A stretch of 61,952 bases of DNA, the filler included, from Hausera hauseri (lineage: Eukaryota): assembly GCA_046269625.1 (NCBI GenBank). It is 13 parts of 13 records of this genome, joined end to end, with 100 filler letters (N's around TTAATTAATTAA, not from the genome) between each part and the next. Parts side by side here need not be neighbours in the genome. Positions count along the whole stretch, not along the records: positions 8,540 to 12,482 come from JBJURY010868960.1; 12 more parts are not named here. One strand, written 5' to 3'. The notes beneath the pieces are model-generated. The model did not search any database. It saw nothing but the letters and a program-made list of their open reading frames with translations, and was not told the DNA's origin. This document shows, in pieces, positions 1 to 51,896 of the stretch. How positions within the stretch are numbered: position 1 is the stretch's first letter; the number at the start of each line of letters is the position of its first letter. A program made the translations under genes and the position numbers.

Positions 1-369
1 TAACATTTCCATTGTAGATAACTGAACAAATGTCAACGTGGGATCTATCGAAACTTTCAAGTTCGGTGCCAATGTGGATGCTGTTTGCCTGTGTAGATTT
101 TTTTATGCCGTTTTTGTCAATTCTCTCTTTATGTTTCTTGTTGTTATATTTGTTGTTGATCTTCTCGGTGATCAATATCATATGCTATTTGGGCCAATTT
201 GCTGGTGCCGAATTTACTGGTCCTTTATTTACAAAAATTAATTGTTGGAAAAAATGTTTGAATAGTCAATAAATACTTCTGACTTGAATTTTGAATTGTT
301 TTGTTAATTCGCCATTTTGGCTAAACCAGTTTATACAAATTTTGGAAGATACAAAACAAACTTTTTATT

Positions 370-1377
370 GTCATTTGTTCTGTAAATAAACCGGTTATCA
401 TTCGTGAAGGTGGAATGGATGCCCTGACCAATATTTTGTGTCATACAGTTCAGGAAGAGATTACTGTTCCGGAATATCCACAAAGTTCAAATGAAAAATC
501 CGATTTATCTTCACAATTCAGCCATCGACTTTTGCACAATTGTTTATGGACATTAAGAAAATTATCCGATGCGGCTATTCGGTTTAATTTCGACAAACTA
601 CTGAAAATTTTGATCGAAGTTTTATTAAATGCATCGAAATCGTTCCATAAACAAAATTATCACATCGATACCAATGCTGTTACATGTGCTGATGGAATTC
701 TTTCGAATCTGACTTGTAATAATCAGTATAACATAGATACTTTGTTTAAGTTAGGTGGAGTTGAAACAATCCTTAAAACAATTGAATGGAATCTAGCTTT
801 AATGAACTCGAATACAGCAAACGAAGTTTCAAATAATTATTATCCGGACGACATTCTGGAACCGTATATCTGTGTACTACGCCACATTTCCAGTCGACAC
901 GAAGAAGCCGAACCTGCCCAGGTGTCAATTATCCAAAAACAAAGACTGCCCATTTTGATCAGATTATTTGAAATGCACCTCGGACCGGATTTGTTCCTCA
1001 TGCAAACGCACCAGTCTGTATTGCCGACACTGTTCATGTCGTACTACAACATCAACTGGAGTTTGATCAAGGCAATGATCGGTCTCATTCGAAATTTAGC
1101 AATGTCACCGTGTAATTTTATAGCGATTCGCGACAAGGAATTTGTGTGGCCGATGATTGTACTGATTAACAGAGCACAAATTGAAATGCTGAACAAGGTT
1201 TACTTTTCCATAGAGTAGTAACGTTTGAATGTTATTGTTATTTATTCATCACAGAGCATGTGCATGCCTGTTGGATCACGTGACAAATTGCTGGAAGAAA
1301 TAATTGAAGTGACTTGCGGTGCTTTGCATATGTTGGCCAAGGATCCCGGTATCAGGAGTCAGATTTTATCAATAAAG
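370..1377 (+). CDS. CTNNB1: Beta-catenin/armadillo homolog, internal fragment (central arm repeats); exons about 370-1197 and 1255-1377
   Basis: Colinear matches to beta-catenin motifs: CSVNKPVIIREGGMDAL, RLLHNCLWTLRKLSDAA, VTCADGILSNLTCNN, EPYICVLRHISSRHEEAEPAQ, WSLIKAMIGLIRNLAM, LEEIIEVTCGALHMLAKD. The two ORFs are joined in phase by a GT..AG intron. 5' and 3' exons are not identified. Confidence 0.9.
1198..1254 (+). other. 57-bp phase-0 spliceosomal intron in the beta-catenin gene
   Basis: AAG|GTTTAC donor and CACAG| acceptor; removal joins MLNK to SMCMPVG in frame; next donor AAG|GTAAAT at 1378. Confidence 0.8.
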
Positions 1378-4659: not shown

Positions 4660-6330
4660 AAGAACTGCAGGCTGACAGATGAAGGCCAGCTGCTGTGAAT
4701 GTGAGTGAAAGATGGAAAATTAAGCTAGCTGTTGAGGATGCAAAGGAGAGTTGGTAGATGAAGGCTAACAACAGGGGGCGTTAGTGTGTGCTTGCAGGTG
4801 TAGGCTAGCTACAAAGGTGCTAGCATGAGCTGCAACACTAAAGTCAGCTATTGAGACCGTGACCATGAGCTGAAAATTTCAAACCAACTGCTAAGGATGA
4901 GCGTGTGCTAGTAGATAAAAGGTCAGCTACTAATAGCAACATGAGTGAACTGGAAAATTGAAGCCCGCTACTTGGTATGTGAGCATTGGCTAATAATGGT
5001 AACTGCTGAGTATGCATGTGAGAGCTGGTAGATGAAAGCCAGCTGCTGCAAACACAAGAGTGAGCTGATAAATTAAGTCAACTGCTGAGGATAAATGTGT
5101 GAGCAGAAATTAAAGCCAACTGGTGAGAATTTATGGATGAGCTGGTAAATTAAAGCCGACTGTTGAGGACGCAAAGCTAAGCTGATAGATGAAGGCCAGC
5201 TGCTGAAGACACAAATGTGAGCTAATATGTTAACACCAAAAGCAGAAAATGCATTGTTTAGTTAGTGAATGAAGCAGACTGCTGAGGATGTCTATGTGTG
5301 CTAAAAGATGAAGGCCAGCTGCTGAGGATGTGTATGTGTGTGCTGTAGAGGAAGGCCAGCTGCTGTGGATGATAATATGTGCTGGTAGTTGAAGGCCATC
5401 TGCTAAGAAGGTGAGTGTAGGCCGGTCGATTAAGGCCAGCTGCTGAGGATGTCTGTGTGTACACTGGTAGATGAAGGTCAGCTGCTGTGGATGATAGTGT
5501 GCACTGGTAGATGAAGACCAGCTGCTAAGGATGTCTGTGTGTGCTGGAAGATGAACCTCAGCTGCTAAGGATGTTGTGTGTGCTGGTAGATGAAGGCCAG
5601 CTGCTGAGGATGTCTGTGTGTGCTGGTACGTGAAGGCCAGCTGCTGATGATGTGAGTGTGAGCTGATAAATAAAAACCACCTACTGAAGAAATTGATGAG
5701 AGCTGATAAATGAAACCAGCTACCGAGGATGCAAATATGAGCTGATGAATTAAAACCATCTACAGAGGACTTGAATAAGAGCTGATAAATGAAACCAGCT
5801 ACCAAGGATGCAAATGTGAGCTGATAAGTGAAAACCAGCTACTTAGGACACAAATGTGAGCTGATATGTTAAAACCAGCTATCGAGGATGGAAATGCAAG
5901 CTGATAAGTTAAAACCAGCTACTGAGGATGCAAATGTGAGCTACTCAATGACACTAGTTACTGAGGATTTAACTGTGAGCTGATGAATAAAAAAATGCCT
6001 ACAGAGGACACGAATGAGAGGTGATAAATTAAACCAGCTATGGAGGATGCAAATGTGAGCTGATAAATTAAATCGAGCTACTGAGGATGCAAATGTGAGC
6101 TGATAAGTTACATCCAGCTACTGAGGATGCAAATGTGAGCTGATAAGTTAAAACCAGCTACCAAGGATGCAAATGTGACTTGATAAATTAAAGGCAAGTG
6201 TTGAATTGAAAGTGTGAGCAGGTATTTAAATGCCTGATACTGAGGGTCCCAACTTGAGCTGGGAAATAAGAGCCGACTGCTCCGAATGTATCTATGTGCT
6301 TGTGGATGAAGGCCAGCTGCTGAGAAAGAT
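4660..6330. repeat. 40-bp tandem minisatellite with two sub-types
   Basis: Units TGCTGGTAGATGAAGGCCAGCTGCTGAGGATGTCTGTGTG (about 5280-5650) and GCTGATAAGTTAAAACCAGCTACTGAGGATGCAAATGTGA (about 5660-6190), degenerate copies on both sides. Confidence 0.9.
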
Positions 6331-8329
6331 AGTTTGTGCTGGTTGATGAGTGTGAGGTGGTAGATAACAGGATAGCTGCTAAAAGGCATGAATAGCATGC
6401 TAGGGTTGGGAGAGGAAATGATAAAAGCTTGCCATGTATAAAGCAAGTGTGTAAGATCAGATTCCCAGTGTGGTAGAGAGCAGAAACAGGGACACTGGAG
6501 ACAATGAGATATTGCGCCTTCGGGAACGGCCCCCTCTGTTGATTTATGTAAGACTCTGCACAGAGAATGGCTTGACCAGCCGGACAAAGTCCGAACGAGC
6601 CAGCAGCCAGCTCGTGTGACAGGAGGCACACTTATACAGAACCAGGGAGAGTCACAGCCAATGAGAAACTGACAAATCTAATAATACGGAAATGAGGACA
6701 GCTGTCAGCGGCGGCTTCATAATCACAGTGTCTTATCATAGAGATACAGTAAAATGTCAAGGCAATGTGAACCCAGTAATTACTATCCATTACACCCAGA
6801 AAAAAAACAGAATTAGAAAATGATGAAACCAACCACCAACAGAGAGTTGCAATATATCCTCACCTAGGAGTTGAAAAACGATTGGCGACTAATATGGAAG
6901 AGAGACCCTGGTGAGTATGAGAAATAACTTAAGGTATAATTAGTTTAGGAGAAGACTGCGACAGTTTTACTGGTGAATTGTCTTGTGACTGAAGAATACG
7001 AGTGTTTTGAGAACGACTGCCTTTTTCATTCAACTGCTACAACCGGACTGAACAAAGCTGTAGACAGTTTATTACTCATGCTTGGTTAAATAAACGAATT
7101 TCAACAAACTATGGAGACATGAGGTAGCCTTATCAGCATCAATGAGTTTTGACGAGCCAGTTAATTAAAAATATGTTCAAATTCAATCATTCAAGTTTTT
7201 TCTAGTGACCCCTTTAAAATGCAAGCTGAGGTAAGATAATTCTAACTTTCTGTTCCAAAGTTTAATTATGATCTGAAAGGATTTTTTTTGCTTGTTAAAT
7301 CTAGTTTGATTACATCAACCTGTTAAAAGACTGTAGGTGGAAATTAGCATTCTTTGCTATAACCTGGCACACTTTGCAAAAAGTAAGCATGATATGAAAG
7401 GAGATCACCATTAGAATTATCAGTCATTTCTTGTGCTGACTGAAAGTTAAACTGGACATGAGGAATTTTTGGTGTGGTTTATATTATTGTTGGTCTTCTT
7501 GTTCTTTATCTTCTTGTTAATGTTGTCGCAGGTAAACAAGGGTTGTTTTTAAATATTCTGCATAAATCAAATTGGCATTTCAAAAATAAATCAAACAGAC
7601 TGGGATGAAAATAATTGTACCTGTCAAGCAAGGCATGAACTAAAGAGAAGCTTCCCTTAATTTCTACAATGTGGGAAAAAATGATATCTGGAATTCAAGT
7701 AGATGCTCCTTGGAAGCTTACCAACTACCTGAAGCCATTTGCAGAACAGTTATTCCCTGCATGTAACAACAAGACCTGTATTCCTCCCCACAGCTAAAAT
7801 ATAACGGTATCTATGACTAGTGTTACATATTGGTCTTGAGCTGTTATTTCTCTGTTCTACTAAAAGTTGTATGTGACACAATAAAAACTTCAAATTAGGG
7901 TTTACCAATTCACAATTTTTATTGTAAAACCCATGGAATTTGTGGACAAGGTGAAAGATGTCATAATGGAAAGCAATGAAACTATGGTTTCTTTTTTCCT
8001 GATGAGTTACAGTAATACAGGTAGAAAAAAAGTTAAATAATTTGGATGATTTTTCTTTGTTGAAATAAAGTTTTGTCTCTCCTCCAAGAATCTTCTTGAG
8101 TCCGAGGAGTTGCAGGTGAACTGAGCCTAACAAGCACTACCTCCACATGGTTGACAAAGAAAAACTGTTTGGTCACAAAAATGGCTTCCTTTACGCCTCT
8201 CTCCAGTAGCTGCAGGACCTGGAGACAGAATGGTCAAAAAATACAATTCTGATCCAAGATTTAACACAGATTAAAAGAAAAGTCTGCCTGGATTAACCTC
8301 TCTATGACAGACATGTCTCCCAATCATTT

Positions 8330-9011: not shown

Positions 9012-11237
9012 AAGTTATGTTGTGAAGAGAAACTAAATGAAGCTATAGACTTGGATTAGCCAGAAGAAGTGGCAAAAGAAACACTAATCCAGTGGAAACG
9101 CGAATTAGAACCCTGGACGAAAAATCAGACGAAAACTCCAGAGACGTGGGATAGAACTATCCAAAGCATTGAAACTAGAATCAATCAAGCTCAGTCGTTA
9201 TTAAATACATTAGAAACCAATCTGAAATTAAAAAGGGCAGTACGTAACTTAGAGCGTGTCATGGATGAAATTAGATTTATCGTAGTCAACCGACTGAAAA
9301 AGAAGCCGGTTAAAGAACGGACTTAGGTCGATCTAGGAATAATGGGCATAGATTCATTAGATATTCCGCCACTAATGGAAATGATAAAAATTGCCGCCAC
9401 TGCAACTAGACAGTATACAAGTTTGGACAACCGTCTTAAAATTGAGGCCGACAAGAGATCGCAAATATATGGATTGAGAAAGAGAATTATGCACCCAAAT
9501 AACGACGAAACACAGAAAATAATTTTGGCCTGTATCCTCGAATTCGAAGAGTATAAGGATTAAATCGATTACGTCCGTCGGACAATCGATTTTATTAAGG
9601 GTCCAGACGACGAGCTAGAAGATGCGCAGAGAATGATAGACAGGACAATAATGGCAAAACCCGAAAACGATAATCCATTAAAGGAATGGTCCGAAGTAAT
9701 AACAAGATTGAGTGAATTAGTGGCAAATCGAAAGAAAGAATTTCAGGAGAGCGAACCTTCCGTAAGGAAGCGATTAGAGGAAGACACCCGGAATCTAGAC
9801 ACTATGAAGGAAGAAATTGACATTCGAACTCAATTCGAGGCATTATGTCAATTGAACTTTATGGAAAAAAATCAAGAAATGATGATACTAGATAATATAT
9901 ATAAGGTGATCGAAGAAACAAATTTCATGCGAAAGCGGAATGCGACTTGCGATTTCTATCCGCGATTAAGAGACGTCCGCCTGAAGGGAATACGATGGTT
10001 GACAGCCAAATCTATCAAAGAAATCTCAATCCGAGATCTTAAAACCTTAGACTGTTGTCCCGAATACCGGTTAGTCGTGGAAGAGGCGGTTAAGTTCTTA
10101 CATCGTCCCCAAAAATGGAGAGATGGAACGGATCAGACTTCATACCGAACTAATTAAAATAAAGAACGACCGCCACCTTAATTTCGAAGAGATTAAATTT
10201 GTAAAAAAATATTAGATGCGATCGATTCAGATTCAAACAGTATTAACGAGATGTACGAATTACCGCTATTGATGACGGAAATGGCAGAAATTAGTGATGA
10301 AAAGTTAAGACAATTGTCGCAGCAGATACAGCAAGTCGAAGAAACTTGCATTAAGACGAAACAGAGAACGATGAGATTAGACAAAAAACAAATACGCTCT
10401 TACAGAAGCAGAAAAGGCTGATAAGTCAATTCGTGCAGATATGGCAGAAATGTAACGGCTGAACTAACAAACTATCAAGAAAAAGGGGTAATTTCACCCG
10501 AAGAATTATGTTCGATACTAACACTACTCCACCAAACATCCGCTAATGGGCGCTGTTTCCGAACAACGAAAATGGTCCAAATGCAACAGAAACTACAGGA
10601 ACTCAGAAAAACTATGTGGACCGCAAGTATGGACGGACCAACTAATACACCGTCGAAGGGTTATCAACCACCAGTCGATGAAAATGAACCAGATTGGGAG
10701 GCATATTTAGATGCAATGATCGCCGAGAATCCAAAAACTCCAATACGATTGGTTGAAATGGAGGTCTATTCTCCAGACCAAAGATTCAATATAGGAATGC
10801 TCCTGGATCCGGTATAAACCGAGAAAGATTTAATTCAATTAATTGAAGTGAACCTTACTGAAATTCAATTGAGATATCTAGTTCCTACCTTAACTAAGTT
10901 AGCTAGCGAAGGTACGATTTCTAGTACAGTAACTAAGCTTTTACTTAAGGAATATACTAAATTCTTAAAGGCAAAGGCAGAGGAAATGGTTCCAGTAAAA
11001 ATAGTATCCGACTGGATGAACGAGAAAGTACAAGAGTTCACTACTCGCACCCTTGTTAAGGATGTATTACTGTGGATAAAGGACAATGGATACGCCCATG
11101 AGTTGAGCTATAGACTTTATTTTAGAGGAAAGATACTAGACGAGTCAGAGTTATTGATAGAGGTTGGAATTATTCAAGGCGAAATAAACCGGTTAGTGGT
11201 ACCACCACTATCGATTAAACAAAAGAAGAGTCCATAA
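9012..11237 (+). pseudogene. ORF1 of the glycoprotein-bearing retroelement: helical/coiled-coil protein with C-terminal ubiquitin-like domain
   Basis: ORFs 9069, 9342, 9633, 10572 and 10848 are all in one frame, broken by stops (10160-10570 may also carry frameshifts). The C-terminal 72 aa (10986-11201) align with the ubiquitin pattern. Confidence 0.6.
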
Positions 11238-11239
11238 GG

Positions 11240-12482
11240 ATGGCTAAAGCCGAACAACAGGTAGGACGAATAATAAGAATCCGAGATGAAACAGTATATT
11301 TTGAGTACCTGCAGACAGATGAAGATAACAAACAATACGATAAAAACTTAGTACCCTTCAACGGCAGTGTACCTGCTGTAATAAAACAGAAGCGTCCAAT
11401 CGGTAGACCTCGGAGAATACGAGAGAAAATCGATTATAATGGAAATTTGATCACAGAGTTAAGGCAAATGTCCATACCGACCTTCAGTACGGACAATGAG
11501 GAACTGAACGAACTGATGAAAGATTTGATACAGATCGTAAACCACTCCGGCTTCGGTGGCGATATAACAGATGAGAAAGAGAAGACCATAGCGAACGCCG
11601 CAAAGGCTATGAAGGGCCTTCGGTGTAAATTATCCAGAAGTACCTTAAGCGATGAAATAATAATCGAGAAAATTATGGTAGAAAATACCATAGAAGAATT
11701 GAGAAAAGTGTTGCTATACCTGGCCGTTAAAACTAACCCAAATCGAGAAAATAAACTCAACAAGACCACTAGCTTAGCAAGAAGGGCCGCCAGGAAACTA
11801 CCTCAACAAGTGAACTGGTCTAAGTTATTCAAAAAAGAGGAAGAACATCAGAATAGATTCTTCTTCAATAACAATAAATTCGGAGATCTACATCAGAATG
11901 TAACCGGAAATCGCAGAGGAAATGAATCGAACTGGCTAATAAACTTTCTGACCATGATGATGTTTATAAGACAAATGGGCGCAGTTACATTATACGACTG
12001 TGACAAATTTAGATTGGGCCAAAAGTATTCGTTAATGGACTTGGATGTGTGAGAAAATGCGAGGCCCCACAGATTAGAAACAAAATAGAAAGGTTATGTA
12101 TTATATCAACAACGCGAATTACTTACCTTGTACAGAGTAGAATGTATGTTGCGGCGATCTTGCAGCATTTTCCATTGTGGACAGGTACATGGGCACTCGT
12201 CAATAATTAAGCCAACAACCCCACTAATTTCGATGAATTTGGAGAGACAACATTGTAAGCAAGATAGAAAAACGGGAAAAATAAAATTGGACGGTATGTA
12301 AATGGAAATGCAGCAATGAAAAATAATCAGAGTGTATAAAGTGGCAGCAGAAAGACTAGATATGCACACTGGACATTGTGGAATACGACACCAGAAAGGG
12401 ATTAAAATCAAACATCGTAGTAGTGGATTTTTACGAAACCGAAATGCGTATACAGAAAGCGATGTTTCATAGCGTTACTAAA
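11240..12482 (+). pseudogene. ORF2 N-terminus: basic AT-hook domain, internal signal peptide and start of a chuvirus-like glycoprotein
   Basis: KRPIGRPRR at 11390-11416; hydrophobic WLINFLTMMMFIRQMGA at 11933-11983; then VTLYDC..YSLMDLDV*EN..VLYQQ..VECMLRRSCSIFHCGQVHGHSSII..RQHCKQDRKTGKI..GHCG in the same frame past point stops. Confidence 0.75.
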
Positions 12483-18118: not shown

Positions 18119-19066
18119 TACCTTTGCCAGTTGAACACCTAACAAATATTAAAAATTTAATATTGCTAATAGGAAGCTGTATAAATGAATTTGCAGCAAC
18201 ATTCATATGAAATATAATAAAATAAATATTTGTTTACCTAAATTACAAAATTTTTAAAATGAGCGCGTGATTTTAATTCATTAATTTCAAAATATAATTT
18301 GTTTTCACATAAATTGCTACCAAAATGCCGAAAAATACTGTTTGATATACGAATGAGGGAACTAATAATGGGCAAAGTCAACCAAGGGAGAAGTTATCGT
18401 GATATTCTTAGTCAGCTTGATGTTTCTATCGCCTGTATATCAAAAATTGTGAAGCAGTTCAAGAATAACGGGGATTTGAAGAATAAATTTGGAAAGTGTG
18501 GGAGGAAGACAATTCTTTCCAAAAGGGCAGAACGAGCTTTGGTGGTGGAAGTAGGGAGAAATCCAACAGTAACAAGTGAATATTTAAAGATAATGTTACG
18601 CGATGAGCTTGGCATTCATATTACTAGTCAAAGTGCGCAATAATCTAATAAAATTAGGTTTTTGTAATTCACCCGTGGTTGAAAAGCCGCTTCTGACAGC
18701 ACGGCACAGAAAGCTGTGTCTAGCCTTTGATAAACGTTATGTTAATCACCCGCTAGAGTTCTGGAAACCGCAATATTTCGGATCGTTAGCTTTGTCCATG
18801 ACCTCCAGACTGAAAGAGTGTATTAAGGAACGTGGAAGCCAAACATTGTATTGACTAAGTACCTAAATTTATTGTGTATTTTAATGTCTTCAACTCGTTT
18901 TATATGGTTCGTGTGTTCTATGAAAATATACGTCATTTTTGTAATTTAGATAAACAAATATTTATTATATTTCATGAATGTTGCAGCAAATTTATAAAGC
19001 TTTCTATTTACAATTATATTAAATTTGTTTGAAATTTGTTAAGTGTTAACTACTTTTTGGGGTATA
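18119..19066 (+). mobile_element. Tc1-like transposon, internally deleted (DNA-binding domain kept, DDE domain missing)
   Basis: About 130-bp imperfect TIRs (18119-18250 vs 18935-19066); GRSYRDI..SIACISKIVKQFK..GRKTILS HTH; jumps from LEFWK straight to the C-terminal SMTSRLKECIKERGSQTLY. Confidence 0.85.
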
Positions 19067-22320: not shown

Positions 22321-22547
22321 AAAAGGAGGTGGGAATAGTGAAACCCCGACTGAACCAAAATTAAAACAAAAATGACATGGCACCAATTGGTCAGTTTTCC
22401 TGCTCTCTGATTGGTCAATACGAAATTTTTTCCTCCTCTCTGATTGGTAAATCTCATTTATTCTTCCCCTTCCTGCTCTCTGATTGGTCAATCAGAGAAT
22501 TTTTCCTTCCGGGGGGGGTTGGTTCCATGCGCTCACTTCCATCTACT
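22321..22547. repeat. Polinton-like right terminal repeat ending ...CTACT
   Basis: GTGGGAATAGTGAAACC motif shared with 46928-46940, repeated CTCTCTGATTGGT (CCAAT) boxes, G-run, terminal CTACT (AGTAG on the minus strand), 700 bp after pPolB. Confidence 0.7.
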
Positions 22548-25500
22548 GATTGAATGTAAAAGGGTAGAGGTGTCAATTAGAGAAACGGAAGATTGTACCT
22601 CGGAATTGCCGGTGCTCTATAATATGGAACACCAATATGTCATGCCAGTTACCAGAATATTGTTAGAAGCCAAGACAAAACTTACTCAGTTAGATAATTG
22701 TACATTTAACATGTCGCCAATGTTCGAGTTAAATGATAAGTGGTTTAGAATGCCCAAAAGAGAAAAAGTATCAAAGCCGGAAACTTTAAGTTTGATCAGT
22801 CTACAAAGAAACCAAAAATTTGAACCACTCACTGGTATTTCACAAGGAGGAATTTACATTCAACAAAATCTGATGGATTATAGACGTATGTTGTTATTTT
22901 CTCAACAAAGGCAAAGGATAATAATGGAATTAACCAGAGGGGTGATGTGGGATGAAGAAGGTTCATCACATTGGGAAAATCTAATGGGAAAACATTACTT
23001 AAAAAAAGTTACCAGAAATGTGATGGAAAAGATGTAGGAAAATTTTTTGTATTTCGGTCAGGCAGCATCCGGATTTTTAGCAATATATTTTATTATTAGC
23101 GCTTTAAGAACAATATTTACTGCACTAGGAAGGGCCTGTGGTATTCATGCCGCAGGTGGTTGTTCCTGGAAAATACTTATAGCAGTAGTACCAAGAGTGG
23201 CCAGCTGTTTTTTAGCTAATCAGGATGCAAAATGGAAAAGAAGAATAACCAAGGAAAAGATTCAAGACGTCGAGAAGAACTCACCTTATAGCACCTTAAA
23301 TGGAAGAAACGACGATAATAATGATAATTTGGATACCAAGCCAACAAGTAATAGGTATATTACTAAGTTAAAGAGACTCTCACTAAAACCACCGAAACCG
23401 AAATATCAAAGGAAATTGATGACAAATCTACCATAATTAGATCCGACTAATGAATACCATAGAAAAAACTATCAGGAACCATCGGTGAGAAACCCATCAG
23501 CTCCACAATACGTGAAACATGGAGGAATGTACCCTACATACCAAGTCTTAAAAATAAAACAAAATTATGCTGAAGAACTTATATCATACAACCACGAACC
23601 CACGTGTAAAACTACTAATACGGAAAGCGAAGCTTGGTCTTATGTGAGACCAGAGATAGAGATAGAAGTAAATGAATGTCCATTAATTGCCTTAATGGAT
23701 ACCCGGTCTACAACCACAATTATGGGGAAGAATCAGTTACCCAAGGATTTAAGAAGTAAATTACGAAAACCCGGGGAAACATTAATTAATGCGGGAGCAT
23801 TTGGAATGGAGGAGGAAATAAAGATGGTCCTAGATGCGAAGATTAAAATTTGCGGTCAGATTATAAATCACACCATAAGAGTAGCTGAGAATCTAACCAA
23901 CGAAATACTAGTGGGATGCGATGTACTACATCAACTAGACGACGTATATATTGATGTTAAAACCGGTCAACTTAGAAGTTTTAATGAAAAACAATACCAG
24001 AAAGTAGTGTCATTAATCAAAGATATCACAATACTACCACGTTCGGAAGTAATAGTACCCGGTAAAATAGAAAGGAGACTACCAACAAGATCGGTTTATT
24101 TTGAACCATCTCCACATCTAATGGAGAAATATGATGTTTTAGTAGCACCACATGTAGATAAAATAAGAAACGGAAAAATCCACTTGAGAATCTGCAACAC
24201 GGGAACAAGGGAGAAACGGTTAAGAAAAAAAACCAGACTCGGATCGGTAACACCAATTGAAGAAATATCTAAGGAAGAGATTAAGTCGATTATCTCAGAT
24301 GTAGATAAGATCAAAAAGATAATGTCGAGGAAACTAAAGTTGGATACCAACGGAAATAAAGAAACAAAAACAAACACGATTAAATGGTAGGAGAAATTAC
24401 AAGATTCCACGGCACTGACAGAAGAGAAAAAAGAAATGTTGCTCCAACTATTACAAAATAACAGTGGTCGATTCGCCCAAAATAATTATGATCTAAGAAC
24501 GATGAACATTATTCAACACGTTATTAAACTAAAAGAGGGACAAGATAAGTGCATAAAAAACGGCCTTACAATCTGACATACGACAAAAAGGAAGATGCTC
24601 GGAAAATTATAAGGGAAATGAGAGAGAATAAGGTAATACGACCAAGTTGCTCGCCGTGGACTGCACCAGTAATAATGGTTAAGAAGAAAGACGGGGCCAT
24701 GAGATTCTGCATAGACTACCGAGCTCTAAATGAAATAACAGAGACAGACACGTATCCACTACCGAGAATTGATGAAATATTAGACAAATTGCACGGATCG
24801 ACAATATTCACGACTATCGACTTACAAAAGGGATATTGGCAGGTGGAGGTGAAGGAAGAAGATAAGCCCAAGACAGCTTTTTCGATAGGCGAAGGATTAT
24901 GGGAATTTAATAGAATGCCGTTCGGATTAAAAAATGGACCACCAACGTTTCAAAGAGGGACTGAATTACTACTGCTGGACGCACCACATGCCATGGTCTA
25001 TATAGATGACGTAATAATAGCCTCATCGGACTTTCAACAGCATTTGAAAGACCTACAAGACCTTTTTGATAGATGTGAAATAATGGGTCTAAAGATAAAC
25101 CCAAAGAAATGCTCATTCGCTCGAGCGGAAGTTGATTTCCTTGGACATCGAGTAGATAGACACGGCGTAAAACCACAAGATAAACTTTTAGGAAAGATAA
25201 AAGATTTTCCAAAACCAACTACAGTCAATGAATTACGCCGATTCTTAGGTCTGGCAAACTATTATCGAAGATTTATAAAAGATTTCAGTAAAATAGCGAA
25301 GCCACTATATGAGTTGTTACGTGAAGATTTAGAAAAAGTAGTATGGACAGGTGACTGCCAAAAAGCTTTTGAGGAACTAAAGGAAAGATTACTCAACGCT
25401 CCGATTTTGATTTATCCAGATATGACAAAACCATTCATACTTGCCACTGACGCAAGTGACTACGGAGTAGGAGCGGTCCTTTCACAAAAAGGTGAAGACG

Positions 25501-25921
25501 GGAAGGAACACCCGGTAGCCTACGCTTCCAGGAAGTTAAATAAACACCAAAAGAATTACGCAGTTATTGAGAAAGAATTACTGGCCGTCATATTCGCACT
25601 AGAAGTATTCTCACCATATATCAGTGAGAATAAACCTCTATTAGTATACACAGATCATCGACCTTTACAGTGGCTAAAGCAACATGAAAACCCAAATAGC
25701 CGATTATTACGATGGGCTCTCAAATTACAGCCCTATACGCTAAATTTCCAATACAAACCAGGAACGCGGAATGCAAATGCGGATTATTTATCAAGAATGT
25801 CAGAAGTACCAAAAACAAGAAGAGAAGTAATCGCCGCGGTATGGAGCATGGACGGATCCATAGAAAAGATAAAGCAAAATCAACAAGAAGATAATGAGAT
25901 AAGGGCTATTAGAAATTATAT
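22548..25921 (+). mobile_element. Ty3/Gypsy-type element with glycoprotein C-half fused in frame to protease, then RT and RNase H
   Basis: ORFs 22444, 23047 and 23485 share one frame, split only by point stops. Motifs: ECKRVEVSIRETEDCTSELPV..PVTRIL, GGIY, TM FGQAASGFLAIYFII; protease ALMDTRS..ILVGCD; one frameshift near 24545; RT SPWTAPV, FCIDYRALN, RMPFGLKNGP, YIDD; RNase H TDASDYGVGAVL, EKELLAV, TDHRPL, NADYLSR. Confidence 0.9.
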
Positions 25922-27599: not shown

Positions 27600-30456
27600 A
27601 TAGCTGATTTTTGTGGTGTTTTTAACAAGAAGTCCGAATTTGGCGAATGAAATCATTTGTCTCTGAAATCCATCAAATTTGAGTATTTTAATTCCGCTGA
27701 TGGTGCTTTCATCCAAAATGAAGTAGCATCGTAGAGACTGTTTCCAGGTACGCATAGCTATATTCCGGCATGACGGGATAAAACGACAAAGTATATCAAC
27801 TCGTCGGCAATTACAAAAACATAACAACAGATGAAAAAACGATAACAGTGTATTTACAGGTCCTTGTTGGGCACAACATCAACCCCCCCCCCGGGGCAAA
27901 GAAGAGACCAGAGGGAAAGAAAATAGGAAATGTGTTGAAACAGTGCAGGCTGTCTAGGAGGTTTTTGTGTGAATAAGACCCCTGCAGTGTTAATCTCCTT
28001 ACTGTAGGTACTACATGTGACGATTTGCGAATATTCAATGTCTTTGAATCTGGTTGCAGAGGAGATTTGAGCAAAACACTGTCAGATTTCGTCCTTGAAG
28101 GTGATGTATCGTTCAGAGACAAGAAAGGGGCTGGAGGAAAAAATGTAGGAGAAAAGGAAAGTGTGAAGGTTTCTAGAAGGGGAGTTTGGAGTAGGTTCTG
28201 GTAAAGGAGTAGTTGTAGAGGCCGGAATGCAAAGGGGTGAAGCAGGTGTAGGAACTGGAATGGGAAAAGCGGAGGAGTCAGAAAGGGAGTAGAAGATTCA
28301 ATTTGAGGGGTATCGTCTACGAAAAAAGCGGGCTTGACGTTGTTGATATGTACCGCTAGTCCTTTACCATCTTTAGAAATAATTGCATTGTGAGAGTGTA
28401 ATTGGACGAGTTTGTAAGGCCCCAAATACCGCACGGCGTTTGATTTTTTAACCAGACGAATTTTACCGCATACAAGTCTTCAGGTAAATATGTTTTGTCT
28501 TTGTAAAGTAACCTGCAGAACGAATCCTTACTGATTGCAACGAAGTGATTTTGCGCTGCCCGTATTGTTTCATCTGTAGGAGTGTCATCTAGGGCAGTAA
28601 GGTCGAATAATGACCGTACAGGAGCTCTGAATAAGGCTTCATAGGGTGACCATTTTGTAGATGTAGGCAAAGTGTTCCGCCAGCCAAACAGAACAAACGG
28701 AAAGTGATTCGTCGAACCAGTGTTGGTCTCTGCAAGGATTCTTAGTGACGTTTTCAATGTTCGGTGGAAACGTTCGAAAAGGTCATTCGATTGGAGGTGA
28801 TAAGGCCTAGTATGTATGTGCTGAATCCTCAATCGGTTAACAAGGAATTTCAGCGGGTTGGATTCAAACTGTGGACCCTGATCTGTGATGATGAAGCTAG
28901 GTGATCCAAACCTGCTAATCAATGTACGAATGAAAACGTTAGGTACGGTATCGGGATGATTTCTGGCCATCGCGAAGAACGGTCCATCATGGTGAAAATG
29001 AATTTATGACCGTTGTCCGGAGGAAGAGGGCCAACGATGTCAATATGCACGGATTCGAAACGCGATGTGCATGGAAAGTGGAATAGTGGTGGCTTTAAAT
29101 GATAGTTGTTTTGTATTTTTGGCAAGCTACACACTCCTTAACCCAGGTTTGCACATCGGAACGCATTGACGGCCAAACTACTTGTCGGTGGAGTAAACAA
29201 AAAGTAGCTTTAGCGCCAAGGAGGTGTAGCGAATGTATACTGTTAAACGCTTGCAGTTGTAAAGTTGGTGCGAGAATTATTACGGAATGACTTAGTTTGG
29301 AAGTGTCTAAAGCCAGACCGTCAACAATTGTACAAGACTTAAAAAATTAAGCATGTTCTGAGGTGGCTGGTTCTGTTGAAGTTGTACTTGAGTGAAGATT
29401 GGTGAAAAATTAATCGAACCAACCGTCCTAGATAAGAAATCGGCAATCAAATTATTAACCCCGTTAATATGTTTTATGTCAAAGGTAAATGTCGACAAAT
29501 ATGATATCTGTCGTTCTTGAGGTGAGTTTCATAGCCATGATGTTTAGCAAGGTCTTGTGATCGGTCTGTAAGTTAAAATGGCGAGCGACAATTATGTTGG
29601 AGAAATGCTTTAAAACGAGAACGATGGCCAATAATTCTCGATTGAACGTTGAGTACCTCGATTCAGGAGGTGTTAACTTGCGTGAAAAAAACTCCAAAGG
29701 CTGGTTCTTTCCCTTACAGATTTGATGAAGTACGGCGCCCATAGCGGTGGTGGAGGCGTCTGTAGTGAGGATGAGCTGTGCATCATGCTTGGAAAAAGTC
29801 ACTATCTCAACACTTTTTAAACCTTCCCTTACCTTTTCTAATTTGTTTACTAGTTCACGGGTCCATTGTATTGGGTGGTGTTTTTTCCACCACTGAGGTG
29901 AGCAAATGGTGCGGTAAGTTCACAGCAGTACGGCACATACTTGTGAACGAATGCAAAGTACCCAAAAAGCTCCTCATTTCTGTTGTTGTTCGAGGTAGTT
30001 GCACGTTTTTTAGCGCTTCAACTTGATTGGGCTGAAGCGAGTAGCCTTTGGAAGAAATAATGTGATCAAGGAAGTTTATACGCTTCTGGAAAAAGTGACA
30101 CTTGGCGAAATTAATCTGCGGGTTATGCTGGTGTAAATGTTGAAAGATTGATCTGAGGTGTTCTTCGTGTTGTTGGGTTGAAGAAGAAACGATTAATATG
30201 TCATCGATATAGGGAAAGGATAGCATCGATGTGGCGTTGAAAAGTCTGCGCAGCATTCCGTAGGCCAAAAGGCATGTACAGATATTCGTAAAGGCCAAAA
30301 GGAGTAGTGACGTTTGTTTTTTCGATATCCTCAGGTGACACAGGTATTTAGTGGTAGGCTTTGGATAAATCAATGGTAGAATAAATTGTAGTTGAATAGA
30401 GACGGTGTAAGATATCCTTAATGAGTGGCAGTAGGTATGCATCCATTATGGTCAAA
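27600..30456 (-). mobile_element. Decayed Ty3/Gypsy pol (RT-RNase H-integrase), PPT and 3' LTR start at 27878
   Basis: PYIDDILI, TTDASTTAMGAVL, RELLAI, VHIDIVGPLPP, ITDQGPQFES, ERFHRTLK; PPT G-run then TGTTGTGCCC; same family as 58150-61952. Left boundary approximate. Confidence 0.92.
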
Positions 30457-31396: not shown

Positions 31397-34300
31397 TATC
31401 TCAAATGCAAATGTCCGTATGCCCAATGGATATTTCGCCCTGCCCAATTGATCGGATGATCGTTTGAGACACAACAGCCACTGCTTGTCCTCCTTTTTCT
31501 TCAAAGACACGGTTATAATCACCGTGGTTTATTTCTGTCTGGGCCAAACTAACTTCTTTGGCGCGCATTTTTGGTCCACCGTCAGTTAAGAGGCTATAAC
31601 ATTTTGGCCGTAGAAATATCCATTCCCTATACTGAACACGACGTTCGATTTCATCCTTGAAGCGGCCGATTTTATTTGTAATGGCGTTGCTGTACAGTGG
31701 ATGATCCGGTGGGTAGTTAAACATGTCCAGTAATCCATCTGACTGCATTTGCTGCAGTAGCTGTTTGCTATTGACGTTTTTCAGCTGCAGAAAAAAACTA
31801 CCTGTGTCACCGGCAATTATATCAATATTGCAGCCGTCAAACATTTGCTCATAAAGTGCCAAGTCACAATACTGCAGTTCATATATACGCAACTTGCTGA
31901 GGTCCAATACCACTTGTACGATGTAACTAGGCCAGTTCAGAACGACTTCTTCTCTGTTTAACAGCACCGCAACCAATCCATCGGCAATATGGATTGACCG
32001 CCGAAACTGCGCCCTTCTGGTATATGTAACCAGCCCGCTTTTCTGAGTTGCATAGGCGCACATTAAGCTGCTTTTTCAGATTCTCCACTGTTTTTCCGTA
32101 GAGGGAATTGTTTTCAACTTGCAGTCCTTTTCGAACTTTGTACAAGCTGCGGCTCGTTTCTCCGAATTTCCATCTATGTATGCCTTGAATATGGGAGCCT
32201 GAGTAAATCGGATTGCACGATGCAGCTGTGTGACACGTACACAAAGCTTCATGTAGAACTGTAGAATACGCCAATGGGCCACGTAATTCAGCTTCGGTTC
32301 ATGCGTCATGAGCAGTTTCTTCACTTTTCAGCCTGGCGGACATTGGTTAAATGATGCGACCGGTAAATCGTCCAAAACGTCATACAGCTTATCTGGTATC
32401 TCGGGATCAACCTCCATCAGGTATCCGACTGAGCCTGCTATGTTTGCTCGTGGTAGGTTGACCATTATATAGTCCAGATCTTGTCTGTCGACTACCCATT
32501 CAAATAAACCGTACGGCAAGTGTTACGAAAGCGCCCAGCCGTACAGGTAATTAATATCACTATTCAGCAGTGATGTGATATCGGTAGCATTGACCTGATG
32601 CTTGTTGACAAATGCCATTCCGCTACGAATACCAACATCAAACATTCGATACATTTCCGGATCTTGCAGCAGTTTAATGTCTCGATCCAGTGACATTAGA
32701 GCTGACACCCAACTAATTCCCTGTATGGAATAAAAGTTGAACAGCTCCAACCTATCTTCCGCCAGCGCTTTGGTCCCAAATGCTTAGAACACATCGGCTA
32801 ATAAGTACACGTCTAGTTTAAGATACTGGAGCATGTAATCAAACATGTTTCTACAGCCCAGTTCTGTCCAAGTTTCTTGTGCTCTCCGATATTCAACTGC
32901 GATACCTGTCCATCGCGGCGGTAATTCCTCTTCTGTCCGGAGTCGCTCATATGATGTTGCAAAGTCATATTGATATATGCCTCTGCTGCGTGCAATATTT
33001 GCAGGGAACTGCGTCAGTGCTATCAACACATCTGGCAAGGTATGTACCAGCTTTGCCAATGATTCATTGAGAAATTGCAATGAATCAAGGAAGCGCACCT
33101 GGAATCGGTTTACTCGTGCCGACAGCCATAGGTATTTCTCCATTGTCGTTGGGGTTATGTACATCATCCGGTGCGGAAAGCCGTTAATGGCCCATTTGCG
33201 AATATGGTGACAGTCATAACATCGGAAATTATGAAAGATCACAGGCAGGAATGGTCGCACTCACCTTGCTAAATTGCATGAATTGCATGCTGCTTCCAAG
33301 TATTGACCAGTGAAATGGTCGTCATCCGGTACGAGCCGTTCCTCAGCATTAAACGGTATTGTTTTGTGGCACAGGTAGAATTCATCGGTGACACCGAAAA
33401 GCAACGGTTGATATTCGTCTGCCCAAATCAATGGCTTATTGCAATTGCTGCGATACTATGGCGCGATATCCGTTTCCACTATGGTTTCCAACTGCTGCAA
33501 GAAATCACGTACACAGTGCCAGTTAAGAAGACTGCTCGGCAAAGTCGGTAGATTGAAATCCTGAATCTCACTTGGTTTCTCGTCGCACATAATTAAAATT
33601 GAAGTCTAAAGAGTTTTTAAAAAAAGTATTTATTTTTATCCAATATTTAAACAAATTAAAAATAAATAATGGTTTTGCTTATTTATTTTTGCTGCTCTAT
33701 TACTGTTCCAACCATGGGAAACGTAATAATGCGGTTGTCTTGCGGCTTTTATTTGGTACTGGCAACATACCGATGGTAATTGGACCGTGCTTTTGATCGT
33801 ATACATTGTGCCGCGGTAGAATTGCTTCGACATGGGCATACCACATATACCGTACTGTCCGCTTTAGACAAATCACTGAATCTGAGCTCCTTTTTGACGG
33901 GCGTGACGTACATTGTTGTCCCTGATGCGTTTTGCCTAGATAGCGTGACATGTTTGGCTCACGTTGTTTCCGATCTGAATCCATGCAAACATACAGGACA
34001 CCATTTGCATCGTATTTGCTTTTTGATGAACTAATCATGCTCCATGTTCAATAGTCTATCCAGATTTGTCATTGATACGTAATGAAAATTTTCGGCCTGC
34101 TTCAACAGCAACAAATTTATCGAGCGTCCATTCGGGTTCCGACTGCGATAAATTATGTCCACATTGGGGTTGTTATAAATTTTTTCGTCTTCCGATACTT
34201 CAACCATTGTGTTGTACCGGAAAACTTTGATTGATAGCGTCGTATTACACCGTTCAAAAGCCGGAATGGTTTTCAGTTTCAACGGCATCAAGCATTCATC

Positions 34301-35141
34301 AAATTGCAATTCGGAATAATACTGCCGATACTGATTTGTACGATTTGCTTGATATCTGTTCACATCGCTGTACTTCAATACAGCCAGAATTCTGTACAGA
34401 AAACTGTATTCGTCGTCATTATTTTGTACATTCACTACCGCCAAAGACTGCTTTAGAGATGCAGGTGTCGGTATGAATGATCGACCAGACAACGACACCA
34501 CGTCACTCGACTTTGTTATAATAAAGCCGAGTGTGACAATTCGTATAACTCCCCATCCACTACCTTTTCGGTATAGTTGGCGATTTTCTCATCCACCTTT
34601 TCGCCTACATCGGCAATAAAATCTTTGGAATACGGTCCGGCTCGATGTGACCGATACCGTTGTTTCCAATCACCGTCAAAGTTTTCAAATTCTGCAAATG
34701 CATAATATTACACTTTGTAGTTGATGAGTTTGAATTTCTCCACCTCTAATTCCAACCGGCTGCGCACACTAGACGGAACATGCTTCAGCTATAGTGTTGT
34801 TGTCCCCGCATGTTTACTTTCACGTCGTACTTGTTTACATCGTACTTGAGAGTAATGGAAGGTTTCTGCTCTTGCATCTGCTCCTCCTGCTGCTGCGGCT
34901 CGGTACCGTTTCAGATTATGTCGTGAAGACTTGTTGAGGCCTGACGTTTCCTACTTGTTGAGGGGATACTGATTTTTCCTGTCGTCATCACTATTTCTTT
35001 TTTAGACCCCTGAAACTTGTTCAAGTGGTCCTTGTGCTAGTTATAAAATTGTTTCTAGTTGATTTCGTCAACTATAGAACAACTGGGACAAACGTAGGCC
35101 CGTTTACCGTGCACCGTTATTGCGCCATAGTACTGCTCTAT
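31397..35141 (-). pseudogene. Polinton protein-primed DNA polymerase B with endonuclease VII-like insert, multiply frameshifted
   Basis: SFIPTP..VVNVQNNDD, DHFTGQYLEAACNSCN, PVIFHNFRCYDCH, FLDSLQFL..SLAKLV, YLKLDVYLLADVF, DINYLYGWALS..PYG, NNSLYGKTVEN, GDTGSFF, IGRFKDE, LRPKCYS, AYGH tail. Confidence 0.92.
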
Positions 35142-40683: not shown

Positions 40684-43600
40684 CTATTCACTCTGAAAAG
40701 AAGCAACATCTAGGAAAATAGGAATTTCCTGATCCAAACTCATATAGCAATCACTCATAAAATACAGTCGGTAAATGTATCGTCCTGATTTTTCCGGAGC
40801 AAAAAATGACAGCGTCACTTTGGTTCGTTCCTGACGAATCATCGGAACACGCTTAAGAGCGATTACTTCCTGATTTTCCGGATAGCCAAGAATTAGAATA
40901 TAGCCTTCGTCTTTCGATTTTGGGAATTTTGGAGAAAATGCCTTCGGTATGGATCCGTTCGAAATTCCAATAACTTTCGGAAAATTCAACTGATGCAATT
41001 GGATCTGGAGAGAGTATTCCTTGTCAGCAACTAGCGGAATCCAGATTTTCTGACCATTGTGACTGGCTATTCGACTGGCACTTGCCCACGACGAGATGTG
41101 ATTGTCTTTGACGGTGGGGATAATGGCATTGCAAACAAAAACGTCTTCTCCTGCATAGTCATCTTCCTCGTTATCCACATCGGTTGATTTTGTAGCATTG
41201 TTAATGACCTTATTTGGAATCTGAACGTCATCACTACGTCCGTTCGTCATTGTCCCTTTCACTTTCATCGTCACATCCATTATTGGGTAAGCTTGTAGAA
41301 CTTCGTACACTTTGTCAACCTCTTGTTTGTCAAAACCGTGAGACAACATTTCTTTCAGAACGCCGTATTTATTATTCACGATATTCATCATTTCCGGCAG
41401 CGATGATATAGGCCGCCCGTTTCTGTCCTTCAAATATCGGATATGGTGGTCCTCAATGCCGGGTAACTGGCGCAACGGGTGATCAGTAATCCAAAGTCCC
41501 TGGACTATCATCTGGATCATCTGGATTAGACGCAGACAGACGGCAAGCCATCCTTCACTGCCAGCTGCATCAATCATAGCCTGAACAATTCTTATTGCTT
41601 GATCCAATACCAATTTCGTGTCTACATAGTAATCCACGATGGGCAATTCCGCCCGACAGAAATGAGCCTGCAGCAAAATGTTGGCCTTCGTATTGGGACT
41701 ATCCATTGTGTTAGGATTCACTTTAATTGGAACTCGTTTGGCAAGTTCAGCATTGAGTTGGTCTTCATTGTGTCGAACTGGGAGTTCTGCAAACTCGTCA
41801 GTTGATGACAAAATGTCCAGTAACTCTTCTAAAGAACTTGTTTTCCGCATTTTTTCATGGAACAACCGGACAGTGACGTGTTTTAGATAATAGTATGATG
41901 CAATTCGGCCCATTATACCAGGTTCGAGGGTCGTATTATCGGTTGGATTTATTTCAACACAATGACTTTGTTCGAGTTCTGATACGACAGATTCAACCAA
42001 TTGCGACAAAAACTTGTTTATATCTGAATGATCGACCGACTCTAATCCATAGTAATTAGGATTCATCAGCAATCGACGGAAGAAAAATGTAAATGTTAAA
42101 TAGTTCATTGCCAACTGTTTGCTGGTAACAGAACCCGAAACAATTTCAGCATTCAAATGATCTGGTAACACTTTCAACAGACTACTCTCGACCGGGAACG
42201 GGTCATACAGAAATTTCTTATAGAAGTCCTTCTTGGTGTCTTGAACCATGATTATGGCTTTACCATCGTTGTCAAACTGAGGCCGACCGGCCCGGCCCAT
42301 CATTTGCAACACGTCCGTTATCGGATAATCTACATACCGTTTCGTTCGTCCATCGAAATACTCCGTGCCTTTCACAATAACCATATGAGCTGGAAAATTA
42401 ACACCCCATGCTAACGTAGATGTTGCAATGAGTATTTGAATCTTCTGATGGAGAAACAAATATTCAACGAGTTTCCTGTCGCTCTCGTGCAAACCGGCAT
42501 GATGTAGACCGATTCCGTATGCAACTGTAAGTTTCAAGTTTTGATCGTGAATTTTTTCAATGATCAATTGAACTTCGTCGTCATTCAGACTTCGCCACTG
42601 ATAACAGTCATCAGATCCGGCAAGAAACGAAATCAGATCCAATGCAGTTAACCGAGTTTGTCGACGACTACTCACGAAAACCAGAACCGGTTTGGTTTTC
42701 GAATGAATTTCAATACATTGAAAAATTGGTTTATTCATTGTGGCCATTCGTGGGCAATAATGTCGACCAGGAAATCCCTGAATGTGAACTTGTAATGGAA
42801 CCGGTCGAACAGACGGTCTGAAATTGTAAAACCCATTGGACGATGGATCGATATGTAACCAATTAGCAAGATCTCGCGCATTGGCCAATGCAGTGGACAA
42901 ACCAACGATTCTGACTTTACAATTCGTGTACGATGAAATGAAATTATTCCTCGATACTATTACTTCAAGCACTGGACCTCTGTCTTCTCCCAGTAAATGG
43001 ATTTCGTCGATAACAATCAACGAAACATCTTGAACGAATTTCCTTTCTGTCCAACTTCGACTGACACCGTCCCATTTTTCCGGAGTCGTTATTATCACAT
43101 CCGACGACGCAACGGCTTTCATATCCGGTGCAATATCACCGGTCAGTTCGACTACTTTTTTATGTAATTTCTCTTCGAATTTCACTTTCCATTCATTGAA
43201 TCGTTCACGAACGAGTGCTTTCAACGGTGCAATATAAACACACTTTTTATTCGGTTGCATTCGAAACACTCGCAGAATTGCCAATTCAGCAGCAACGGTC
43301 TTACCAGATCCGGTTGGAGCACCTAATAGGACATTCGTATCGGAATGGTAAACAGCATGAAATATTTGCGTTTGGATGGGATTGAAATGAGAAAATGAAT
43401 AAATTGTTTGAAACTGCTTGTTTTTTAATGCAGTAATTGGTAACGGTCGTAAATCAAGCAGATTAGTTTCCGGCGGATAGACATCAGGTAAAATGAGATT
43501 CTTGAACGAAATCGGCAAACTAGTTGAAGATCCGATCCATGTATCACTGACAATTTGTAAAACATAAAACGGCGGTACTGGCTTGAATATTGGAATGGCA

Positions 43601-45984: not shown

Positions 45985-46914
45985 GGAAAAACAAGATTTC
46001 TATTCGATTGACGGGAATCTGATCCCGTCTTTCTCGTGCCGGGATTTTCCGTTTCTCATCATATCGACAATATTCCGATTTACAATTTCCGACGGTGATT
46101 CTCGTTCGGTTGACATTAATATTTTTAGCCTTGACAATTTGCATTGGCAATTGAACCATACATAACGTTCCTGGAATCCATGACCAGAATGTCTGTATTT
46201 TTATTAGCTCTTATTGGTTCCGGTAAACGGATTATTCCGTGTTTAATTCCATCAATATTACAGATTTTACCGCATACAATATTATGGTCCGCAACCATAT
46301 CTAATAAGTCAATCAAATTCTTCGAATTCAATTTCAGGAACATAAACTTTGGTATAGTATGTTGGAGCTAAATTTAAACAATAGGTGTTTTGACTTCGGT
46401 CATCAATCTGAACTAAGCTTTTAAACGTTTCATAGTTTGTTGCGGATGTGACATTAAATAAGAAATAATTTGAACACAATTGGATCGAATAAGTTCTTCA
46501 ACGGAGTCATAACCCAACTGATAAATTGGAATTTGGCTGCCAGTCATCATTTCATAGTCACCATTCAGTCGACTAAGTGTTACACCATCTTTGTTTGATC
46601 CGACCNNNNNNNNNNNNNNNNNNNNNNNNNNNNNNNNNNNNNNNNNNNNTTAATTAATTAANNNNNNNNNNNNNNNNNNNNNNNNNNNNNNNNNNNNNNN
46701 NNNNNGCGACACTGGATAACAAAGAACAAAAGTGTCGCCTATGGACATTATTGTACAAATGTGTAAATATTAGATTGTACATATTATATTAATAAATATT
46801 TTGTGCAGAATTCTTTGTCTTCTGTTTTGTCTTAATGTAAATTATTTTGTTGTTTCATTTCATTAAGTGACAATGGTATTAAGTGACAGTGGTATTAAGT
46901 TTGTAAAATTTAAA

Positions 46915-47120
46915 CAAAAGTGGGGTGGGAATAGTGAAACCACGACCAAACCAATCAATATTGGGGGTGGGAATAGCGAAACCACGATCAAACCAATCAA
47001 TATATTGAATTTCAAAATCAATATATTGATTTTCAAAATTCCCCATATAAAATTCCCATACAATATTGATTATCGATTCTGGGGGGGGGGGGTGGGGTGG
47101 TGTGCTCCTTTCCACCTACT
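46915..47120. repeat. Polinton-like TIR (right end, ...CTACT)
   Basis: Near-exact reverse complement of 50950-51183; internal repeats GGGGTGGGAATAGTGAAACCACGA..AAACCAATCAATAT. Confidence 0.8.
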
Positions 47121-50100: not shown

Positions 50101-50949
50101 CAACCAAGCTGTCTCTTGCTCCTCTCGCTCCTCCACCATTCGTATATACCTTTCATCTGTTTGCGATTAGATTACCTTTTCATAGGCTAAGTTTTTCTTC
50201 TCGTCTTTATCTAACTTGTTCTTTATAATTTCTAGCCACCTTTTTGCCATCCATTCATTGCCTTCCATTCCAGGTAACCAACGTCATATAACTTATCAAA
50301 GTTTTTCAAAGGATCCTTTACTTTAGAATAAAATAATTTCCAAATTAATAGTTCTTTTGAGATCAGAGCAAACTCCATCATTACCAACTTTGGGAGTTTG
50401 ATTTCAGTATGATGCTTCATCAGTTTCTTTATAATTTCACTAGATTTTTCTCTTTTGAAATGATATTTACAGACGCAGGCAATTATCAACTTTTCACAGC
50501 TCTGAATATACTGATCTGTCATCTCCTCTTAAGTATTATCCAAATTAATGAATTTCAAATTTCAAATTTTTTTGAATTTATCAATTTTTAATTTTTTTTT
50601 CAATTTGTAGTATATTTTCATCAACCATCTCCGCCTTTGTACATTTTCAGTATAGGCACGCCATATATAACCGCCCACAAAGCTCCTCTTCTCTCTGCCT
50701 CTACGGGTGTCCACGGGTTTGAGTCACGATCAAAATTTTCTAATCAAGCATACCTCTTTTCCCAATGTATCTCATTCACACACACAAACTTTAGAACAAT
50801 AAACAAATTTTTTATGTACAATATATATAATACTAAATATACTTGCTTCCAATCCTATACACACATTCTATGTACACACATACCCCTCATTGTCCTAATC
50901 TCGATTTCTGATCGAACCGTTGCAGGATTCCCCAACTAACAATCGGGTC
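47121..50949 (-). mobile_element. Decayed BEL/Pao LTR retrotransposon (RT-RNase H-integrase) with split LTR pieces
   Basis: CRIVLDAA..CLNDFLDPGP, YEFNRLVFG, YMDD, HIFCDAS, IPRLELMAA, GIDFAGP, SDNGETF, PHFGGVYE, KIGDKVWL. PPT AAGGAGGGGG then TGCTGGGACCCG at 47132-47121; LTR remainder about 50606-50949; gag and protease absent. Confidence 0.9.
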
Positions 50950-51183
50950 AGTAGGGGGAAAGGAGCACACCACCCCCCCGCCAGGATCGATAATCAATAT
51001 TGTATGGGAATTTTATATGGGGAATTTTGAAAATAAATATATTGATTTTGAAATTCAATATATTGATTGGTTTGATCGTGGTTTCACTATTCCCACCCCC
51101 GAAAAAATATTGATTGGTTTGATCGTGGTTTCACTATTCCCACCCCCGAAAAAATATTGATTGGTTTGATCGTGGTTTCACTA
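50950..51183. repeat. Polinton-like TIR (left end, AGTAG...)
   Basis: AGTAGGGGGAAAGGAGCACACCACCCC...; preceded by CGGGTC, the same 6-mer that follows the right TIR at 47121. Confidence 0.8.
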
Positions 51184-51896
51184 NNNNNNNNNNNNNNNNN
51201 NNNNNNNNNNNNNNNNNNNNNNNNNNNTTAATTAATTAANNNNNNNNNNNNNNNNNNNNNNNNNNNNNNNNNNNNNNNNNNNNAAATCAAAAAACATACC
51301 AAATAGTAGTAACAAAATCAAATATATCAAAAACAAAATCTCAAATAACAATTTAAATTTACAAACAATAATAAAATCTCGAACAAAAGTTCCTAAAAAT
51401 ATAAAATCACATTTGGTCAAAATAAAATATTTCAAAAAACAAAATTCGAAAATAAAATCACGGATTCACCAAACATAAACATTTTTTTCTCAAATTCCTA
51501 CACAAAACAACATCACAAATTCAATCGAAATAAATTGAAATAAAATAATAAAATCAAAACTCCTGGAATCATAAAATAAATCAGGATTACAAGTGCTGAA
51601 GTGACCAGCATTTATAATAATAAAAAATTAACAATCAAGATCTGTGGATATAATCCGTTTGTTTAAATCCACAGTTTAAAGATTGTACAGTATATTTTGA
51701 AAAAGAAAATCAAATCGACGAAGAATCCAAAGGAGAAAAATATTTTGGCAATCGGAATAGTAAATCAATACGCGAAAGAAGTGAATCGGTTAATAATATT
51801 TACAACTCAGAATTAGATGACAGTTCCAAAAATCGAAGTCGTCGAATAGCTCGGCTTCATGATTTTTCACGAACAGTTGAGCCGAATCTAAGTTTA

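Follow-up and report, generated by a model that had tools for sequence, protein, structure and literature searches.

The stretch of DNA analysed here (the window; 61,952 nucleotides from Hausera hauseri, assembly GCA_046269625.1) consists of 13 separate contigs joined by identical linkers of the form N44-TTAATTAATTAA-N44. Since the contigs are merely joined in this way, features flanking a linker are not genomic neighbours. One contig (JBJURY010868960.1) carries a 72-codon segment that resembles ubiquitin. The order seen there is a helical region, the ubiquitin-like segment, a frame of 277 codons and the start of an envelope (Env) glycoprotein, within which the contig ends (Table 1). We found no capsid or CCHC motif on this contig by Pfam and motif scan, and no Pol, Bcl-2, MATH, BIR or ankyrin match; the element is present only in part.

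Table 1. Features of the contig with the ubiquitin-like segment, and the Env-Pol remnant of a second contig (positions count along the window).
Feature	Position	Strand	Basis or remark
Contig carrying the ubiquitin-like segment	8540-12482		1 of 13 contigs in the window; 3.9 kb
Long broken frame with the ubiquitin-like domain at its end	9015-11237	+	9 internal stops; helical/coiled-coil-like by eye
Helical stretch homologous to the unnamed protein fragment P0003	10269-10703	+	27% identity over 155 columns
Likely ubiquitin-like domain, type II, no Gly-Gly	10986-11201	+	translation, Pfam, profile scan, ESM Atlas
Overlap of the two frames (19 bases); frame change in this copy	11219-11237	+	
Stop-free 277-codon frame, in frame into the envelope	11219-12052	+	ATG at 11240
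Basic motif around Gly-Arg-Pro, taken to be AT-hook-like	11390-11416	+	pattern match only
Most hydrophobic stretch of the 277-codon frame; likely internal Env signal sequence	11933-11992	+	start of the PF24664 match
gB/chuvirus-type fusion glycoprotein, N-terminal part, stop-broken	11936-12292	+	PF24664 positions 5-123
Env C-terminal half, then protease, RT and RNase H, on another contig (21654-25921)	22444-25921	+	

The stop-free frame around the segment spans 10818-11237; past the segment it continues for 11 codons, and its stop occupies 11235-11237. Downstream, the envelope continues in the same frame as the 277-codon frame. With stops read as X, its match to PF24664 has an E value of 3.8e-6 and 25.6 bits against a cut-off of 27. 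The intervening region (11219-12049) has no match in Pfam, the PDB or the ESM Atlas. Its basic motif, for which we adopt the label AT-hook-like, lies about 60 codons downstream of the segment; the region 11219-11420(+), made up of a short beta-rich stretch and then this motif, looks Tudor/SH3-like by eye and has no Pfam match. Programmed -1 frameshifting was considered and rejected, since 11150-11240 lacks a slippery heptamer of the form X XXY YYZ. By eye, the flanking helices had suggested a Bcl-2 or a death-fold (CARD-like) reading; neither found Pfam support, and both were dropped. A HMMER search of 1.84 billion representatives returned P0003, a fragment of 150 residues, as its sole match, and this match does not reach the domain itself. 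No relative spanning the domain was found in word-indexed protein searches, metagenome contigs, viral contigs or exact look-ups.

On a second contig, the broken element at 22444-25921(+) shows an Env match (PF24664, E 3e-31) that immediately precedes the protease, RT and RNase H, in Env-before-Pol order. Without an overlap between them, the Env pieces of the two contigs cannot be assigned to one element, and because the protease and RT at 23437-25921 lie on another contig, they are not readable as the Pol of the segment's element. Another Ty3/gypsy family is represented by two decayed copies, at 27814-30445(-) and 58241-61952(+), with 69% likeness over 1.7 kb. Within 46922-51146 there is a broken BEL/Pao frame with RT and peptidase A17 (49147-50166), flanked by 204-base inverted repeats that are 91% alike (46922-47120 and 50950-51146). 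A Tc1/mariner-type helix-turn-helix fragment was found at 18263-18643(+), and at 31404-34588(-) pieces of a broken DNA polymerase B of the protein-primed type, in which 32787-33260 matches PF03175 (E 1.6e-6); they are probably left over from a Polinton-like element. The window further holds an uninterrupted double helicase of 1771 codons with Sec63 domains, presumably ASCC3/Brr2-like and intronless over 5.3 kb (40687-45999, minus strand), and, at 325-1218 (plus strand), a beta-catenin-like frame of the armadillo type (E 3e-31), which is diverged and has an insertion when compared with solved structures. This frame marks the host as an animal; the type of element would suggest a flatworm, but as no more than a guess. 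A frame of 1530 codons at 51654-56246(+) is of low complexity, rich in Ser, Arg, Lys and Glu, without a Pfam match, and contains tandem repeats of about 105 bases and many RPKRG-like motifs. At 4670-6350, tandem repeats form a degenerate array whose periods are about 40, 80 and 160 bases.

The initial annotation had read the 72 codons as a ubiquitin-like segment, and our translation agrees with it exactly. In a search of 24,736 Pfam families, a check that it had suggested for the ubiquitin clan, UBX (PF00789; E 0.031, score 14.9 against a cut-off of 21) and ubiquitin (PF00240; E 0.059, 13.6 against 25.4) were the only matches, both of them below cut-off. The best pairwise alignment between segment and ubiquitin extends over 56 residues without a gap. 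In a gapless register, in which ubiquitin position n corresponds to segment residue n+1, there are 10-16 identities over 71 positions (median 13), and 14 of the 17 positions that we take to form the ubiquitin core are hydrophobic. A gapless ubiquitin profile ranked the segment first among the 117,162 56-mers in six frames of the whole window (31.5, against 17.3 for the runner-up). As a control, an HMM was built from 99 distinct ubiquitin units out of 121 viral loci; the segment scored 6.5 bits, a value that 5 of 5000 shuffles reached, but only -0.3 bits when scored inside the full six-frame translation. The probability given by hhalign was 5.4%, with 4 of 300 shuffles equally high. Because the segment was chosen by eye, these shuffle p-values flatter it. 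In the ESM Atlas, every named match listed was a ubiquitin/SUMO cluster with a score below 0.9; ubiquitin/Rad60-SLD clusters made up 5 of the 7 rows listed (0.87-0.89), which we grade as a lead only. A phmmer search of the PDB gave no ubiquitin match; it returned TPR-repeat proteins (E 0.001), which were rejected because each score adds up five stretches, worth 2-5 bits, within designed repeats. At the level of sequence, the segment thus appears to resemble ubiquitin weakly, beyond chance yet under curated thresholds.

Gly-Gly is absent, since the residues corresponding to ubiquitin positions 75-76 are Ser-Ile; the view that the domain is integral and non-conjugatable is supported as likely. 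The equivalents of ubiquitin Leu8, Ile44 and His68 are Asp, Tyr and Arg. A beta-grasp, which the initial annotation had proposed to look for with AlphaFold, did not appear: AlphaFold2, run on the single sequence without an alignment, gave two models of low confidence (mean pLDDT 57.1 and 57.9) that disagree with each other, neither of them a beta-grasp. Foldseek, applied to the first of these low-confidence models, found nothing at E<=0.001, an uninformative outcome. We nevertheless consider it very probable that the segment folds as a beta-grasp.

Two public runs, X1 and X2, contain this stretch. None of the runs listed as containing it is an RNA run, from which nothing follows about expression. 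When contigs are aligned at 80% likeness, the stretch is matched by 4584 from X1 and 324 from X2, most of them less than 95% alike. At sites inside the segment, 31-38 X1 contigs carry the listed differences. The segment has thus been kept in many copies (at least 38 X1 contigs cover it), a point that the initial annotation had thought worth checking. Single X1 contigs, one each, skip or diverge over 10955-11297, 10983-11053 and 11173-11322. Run X2 bears a different organism label and may hold the same animal at a low level; for this reason it was not counted as cross-species conservation. Among 25 differences in three stop-free frames (from 40 listed of 908), 19 are non-synonymous, as expected under neutral decay of this copy. 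Summed depth is 662-1214 over the domain and up to 32,660 in other bins, and such depth cannot rank the parts. What the contig carries is one decayed member of a repeat family. Given its stops and the change of frame, no full protein is made from it, and it is unlikely that this copy itself does anything.

Both ends of the frame vary among the copies. The first ATG of the segment differs in 141.5 of 325.3 X1 depth units and in 11.5 of 11.5 in X2, and for the ATG at 11240 the corresponding figures are 1187 of 1226 (97%) and 33.5 of 33.5. Near the end of the domain, copy lengths vary in 7 X1 contigs and 1 X2 contig; since the length difference accounts for 206.8 of 1044.2 units of X1 depth (about 20%), a single frame through this region is only inferred. 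As the two ATGs are not common to all copies, lengths vary at the end and a slippery heptamer is lacking, the start and end seen here are probably features of this broken copy. Hence, the domain probably lies inside a longer Gag-Env-Pol polyprotein. The earlier placement at the C-terminus of ORF1 is not supported: the frame end seen here is not common to all copies, and no capsid or CCHC motif was seen on the contig.

We are inclined to read the segment as a ubiquitin-like domain, internal and non-conjugatable, within the broken copy of a repeated retroelement that carries an envelope and is apparently of the Gag-Env-Pol (Burro-like errantivirus) kind, and we think this reading somewhat better than an even bet. 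In working copies, the frames described above would form one polyprotein. The ubiquitin-like domain would then face the cytosol, before the signal sequence of Env, and could be freed together with its neighbours by the protease of the element and by signal peptidase. It might act not as a conjugated tag but as a decoy or docking site for proteins of the host ubiquitin system, for example ligases, deubiquitinases, p97 or proteasome factors. Taken alone, this mechanism is put forward tentatively, with chances that we place slightly short of even. The domain would thereby be part of the host-modulating cargo that such elements have between Gag and Env, where it would shield the polyprotein or weaken control by the host.

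A ubiquitin-shaped domain could also have a structural role only, as a stable spacer, an assembly adaptor that binds proteins or the RNA complex of the element itself, or a presenter of a protease site. Such a role would fit the loss of the receptor patch (positions 8, 44 and 68) while the core is kept, as well as the basic motif some 60 codons downstream, and coronavirus nsp3 Ubl1 is an integral ubiquitin-like domain in a viral polyprotein. It sits less well with Burro, a published giant retroelement, because the neighbouring cargo there is ubiquitin- and apoptosis-related and points to host partners (PMC6431247). We regard an exclusively structural role as unlikely. The initial annotation had instead suggested a built-in substitute for a late domain, which would bring in ESCRT for the budding of enveloped particles. 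ESCRT receptors usually bind the Leu8/Ile44/His68 surface of ubiquitin; the patch is not kept in the segment, which makes this role unlikely, and the domain probably has no free C-terminus. In favour of a late domain, the element carries an envelope, and the two frames scanned contain no PSAP/PTAP or PPxY motif and one YPxL-like match, an absence that says little about late domains because Gag is off the contig. There is also a precedent in that ubiquitin fused to EIAV Gag substitutes for a late domain (PMC8402826). Altogether, we give the ESCRT proposal a small chance.

It could further be argued that the likeness is due to chance and that the segment has another fold in a fast-evolving polyprotein. 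The sub-threshold Pfam scores, the hhalign probability, the PDB search without ubiquitin, the models without a beta-grasp and the choice of the segment by eye all point this way. Against this stand two Pfam matches that both belong to beta-grasp families, the 56-residue gapless alignment, the first rank in the window and language-model neighbours that are ubiquitin-like clusters. The position of the segment also agrees with that of the published Burro domain (PMC6431247). Chance likeness is, in our judgement, improbable. An equally long shot is that the element represents an unsampled lineage in which a Ubl/AT-hook/Env arrangement replaces Ubl/BCL-2/Env, and whose ubiquitin mimic would recruit host membrane-scission or ubiquitin machinery for the release of particles between cells.

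With the layout already published and the copy dead, the finding adds one divergent family. Our literature search, with subscription papers and bioRxiv supplements outside it, found no published test of the function of a retroelement ubiquitin-like domain. A binding partner of the domain would reveal how enveloped retroelements of invertebrates deal with the ubiquitin system of the host, and a domain of about 70 residues is easily expressed.

Compared with the integral type II ubiquitin-like domains of PF00240 and PF00789, the segment is the same in length, in its gapless core pattern and in the lack of Gly-Gly; it differs in scoring under both cut-offs, in its altered receptor patch and in being borne by a retroelement. 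The initial annotation had held that ubiquitin-like domains are no standard part of Ty3/gypsy ORF1. That such a domain would be without precedent is not supported, given the planarian giant Ty3/gypsy element Burro/GYPSM1. Its ORF1 contains Gag, CCHC knuckles and Smc-like, MATH, BIR and ankyrin motifs, and a Ubi2/SUMO-like domain (PF11976) lies between MATH and BCL-2, followed in frame by Env, protease and RT (PMC6431247). In that report, it is proposed that Burro meddles with apoptosis and ubiquitination (Arkhipova and Yushenova, 2019; PMC6431247). Expression of BURRO1 and its control by piRNAs have been shown (PMC8532177).

Burro/GYPSM1 (PMC6431247) differs in several respects from what is seen here. 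The contig studied here has no PF11976, BCL-2, MATH, BIR or ankyrin match, and the spacer between its ubiquitin-like domain and Env matches no family and carries the AT-hook-like motif. PF11976, the motif of the Burro domain, is not matched by the segment; Rad60-SLD clusters are among its listed ESM Atlas neighbours. Burro/GYPSM1 is one giant Gag-Env-Pol frame of more than 25 kb, whereas our contig measures 3.9 kb and is likened to it by layout, not by sequence.

A second comparison is with the GAG-ENV-POL elements with a gB-type Env that are reported from Platyhelminthes, Nematoda and Bryozoa (PMC13524379). Neither the text nor the 7 supplements of that paper contain the word ubiquitin. The element described here shares the gB/chuvirus-type Env with these HSV/gB-type errantiviruses, and by eye the start of its Env resembles the Env rows of the planarian Smed_errantivirus_1-6 (PMC13524379). 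In gB-type errantiviruses, Env precedes Pol; on our contig, the order relative to Gag and Pol lies outside the view.

The element would work like a Burro-type element, as a putative rather than an established member. In Burro, the ubiquitin-like domain follows an Smc-like stretch, and the frame upstream of our segment looks helical and coiled-coil-like by eye; decayed Burro-type fragments of Dugesia japonica have stops and frameshifts, like the stop-broken and frame-shifted copy analysed here (PMC6431247). Both elements appear to have a domain like ubiquitin or SUMO in the region upstream of a fusion glycoprotein that is in frame.
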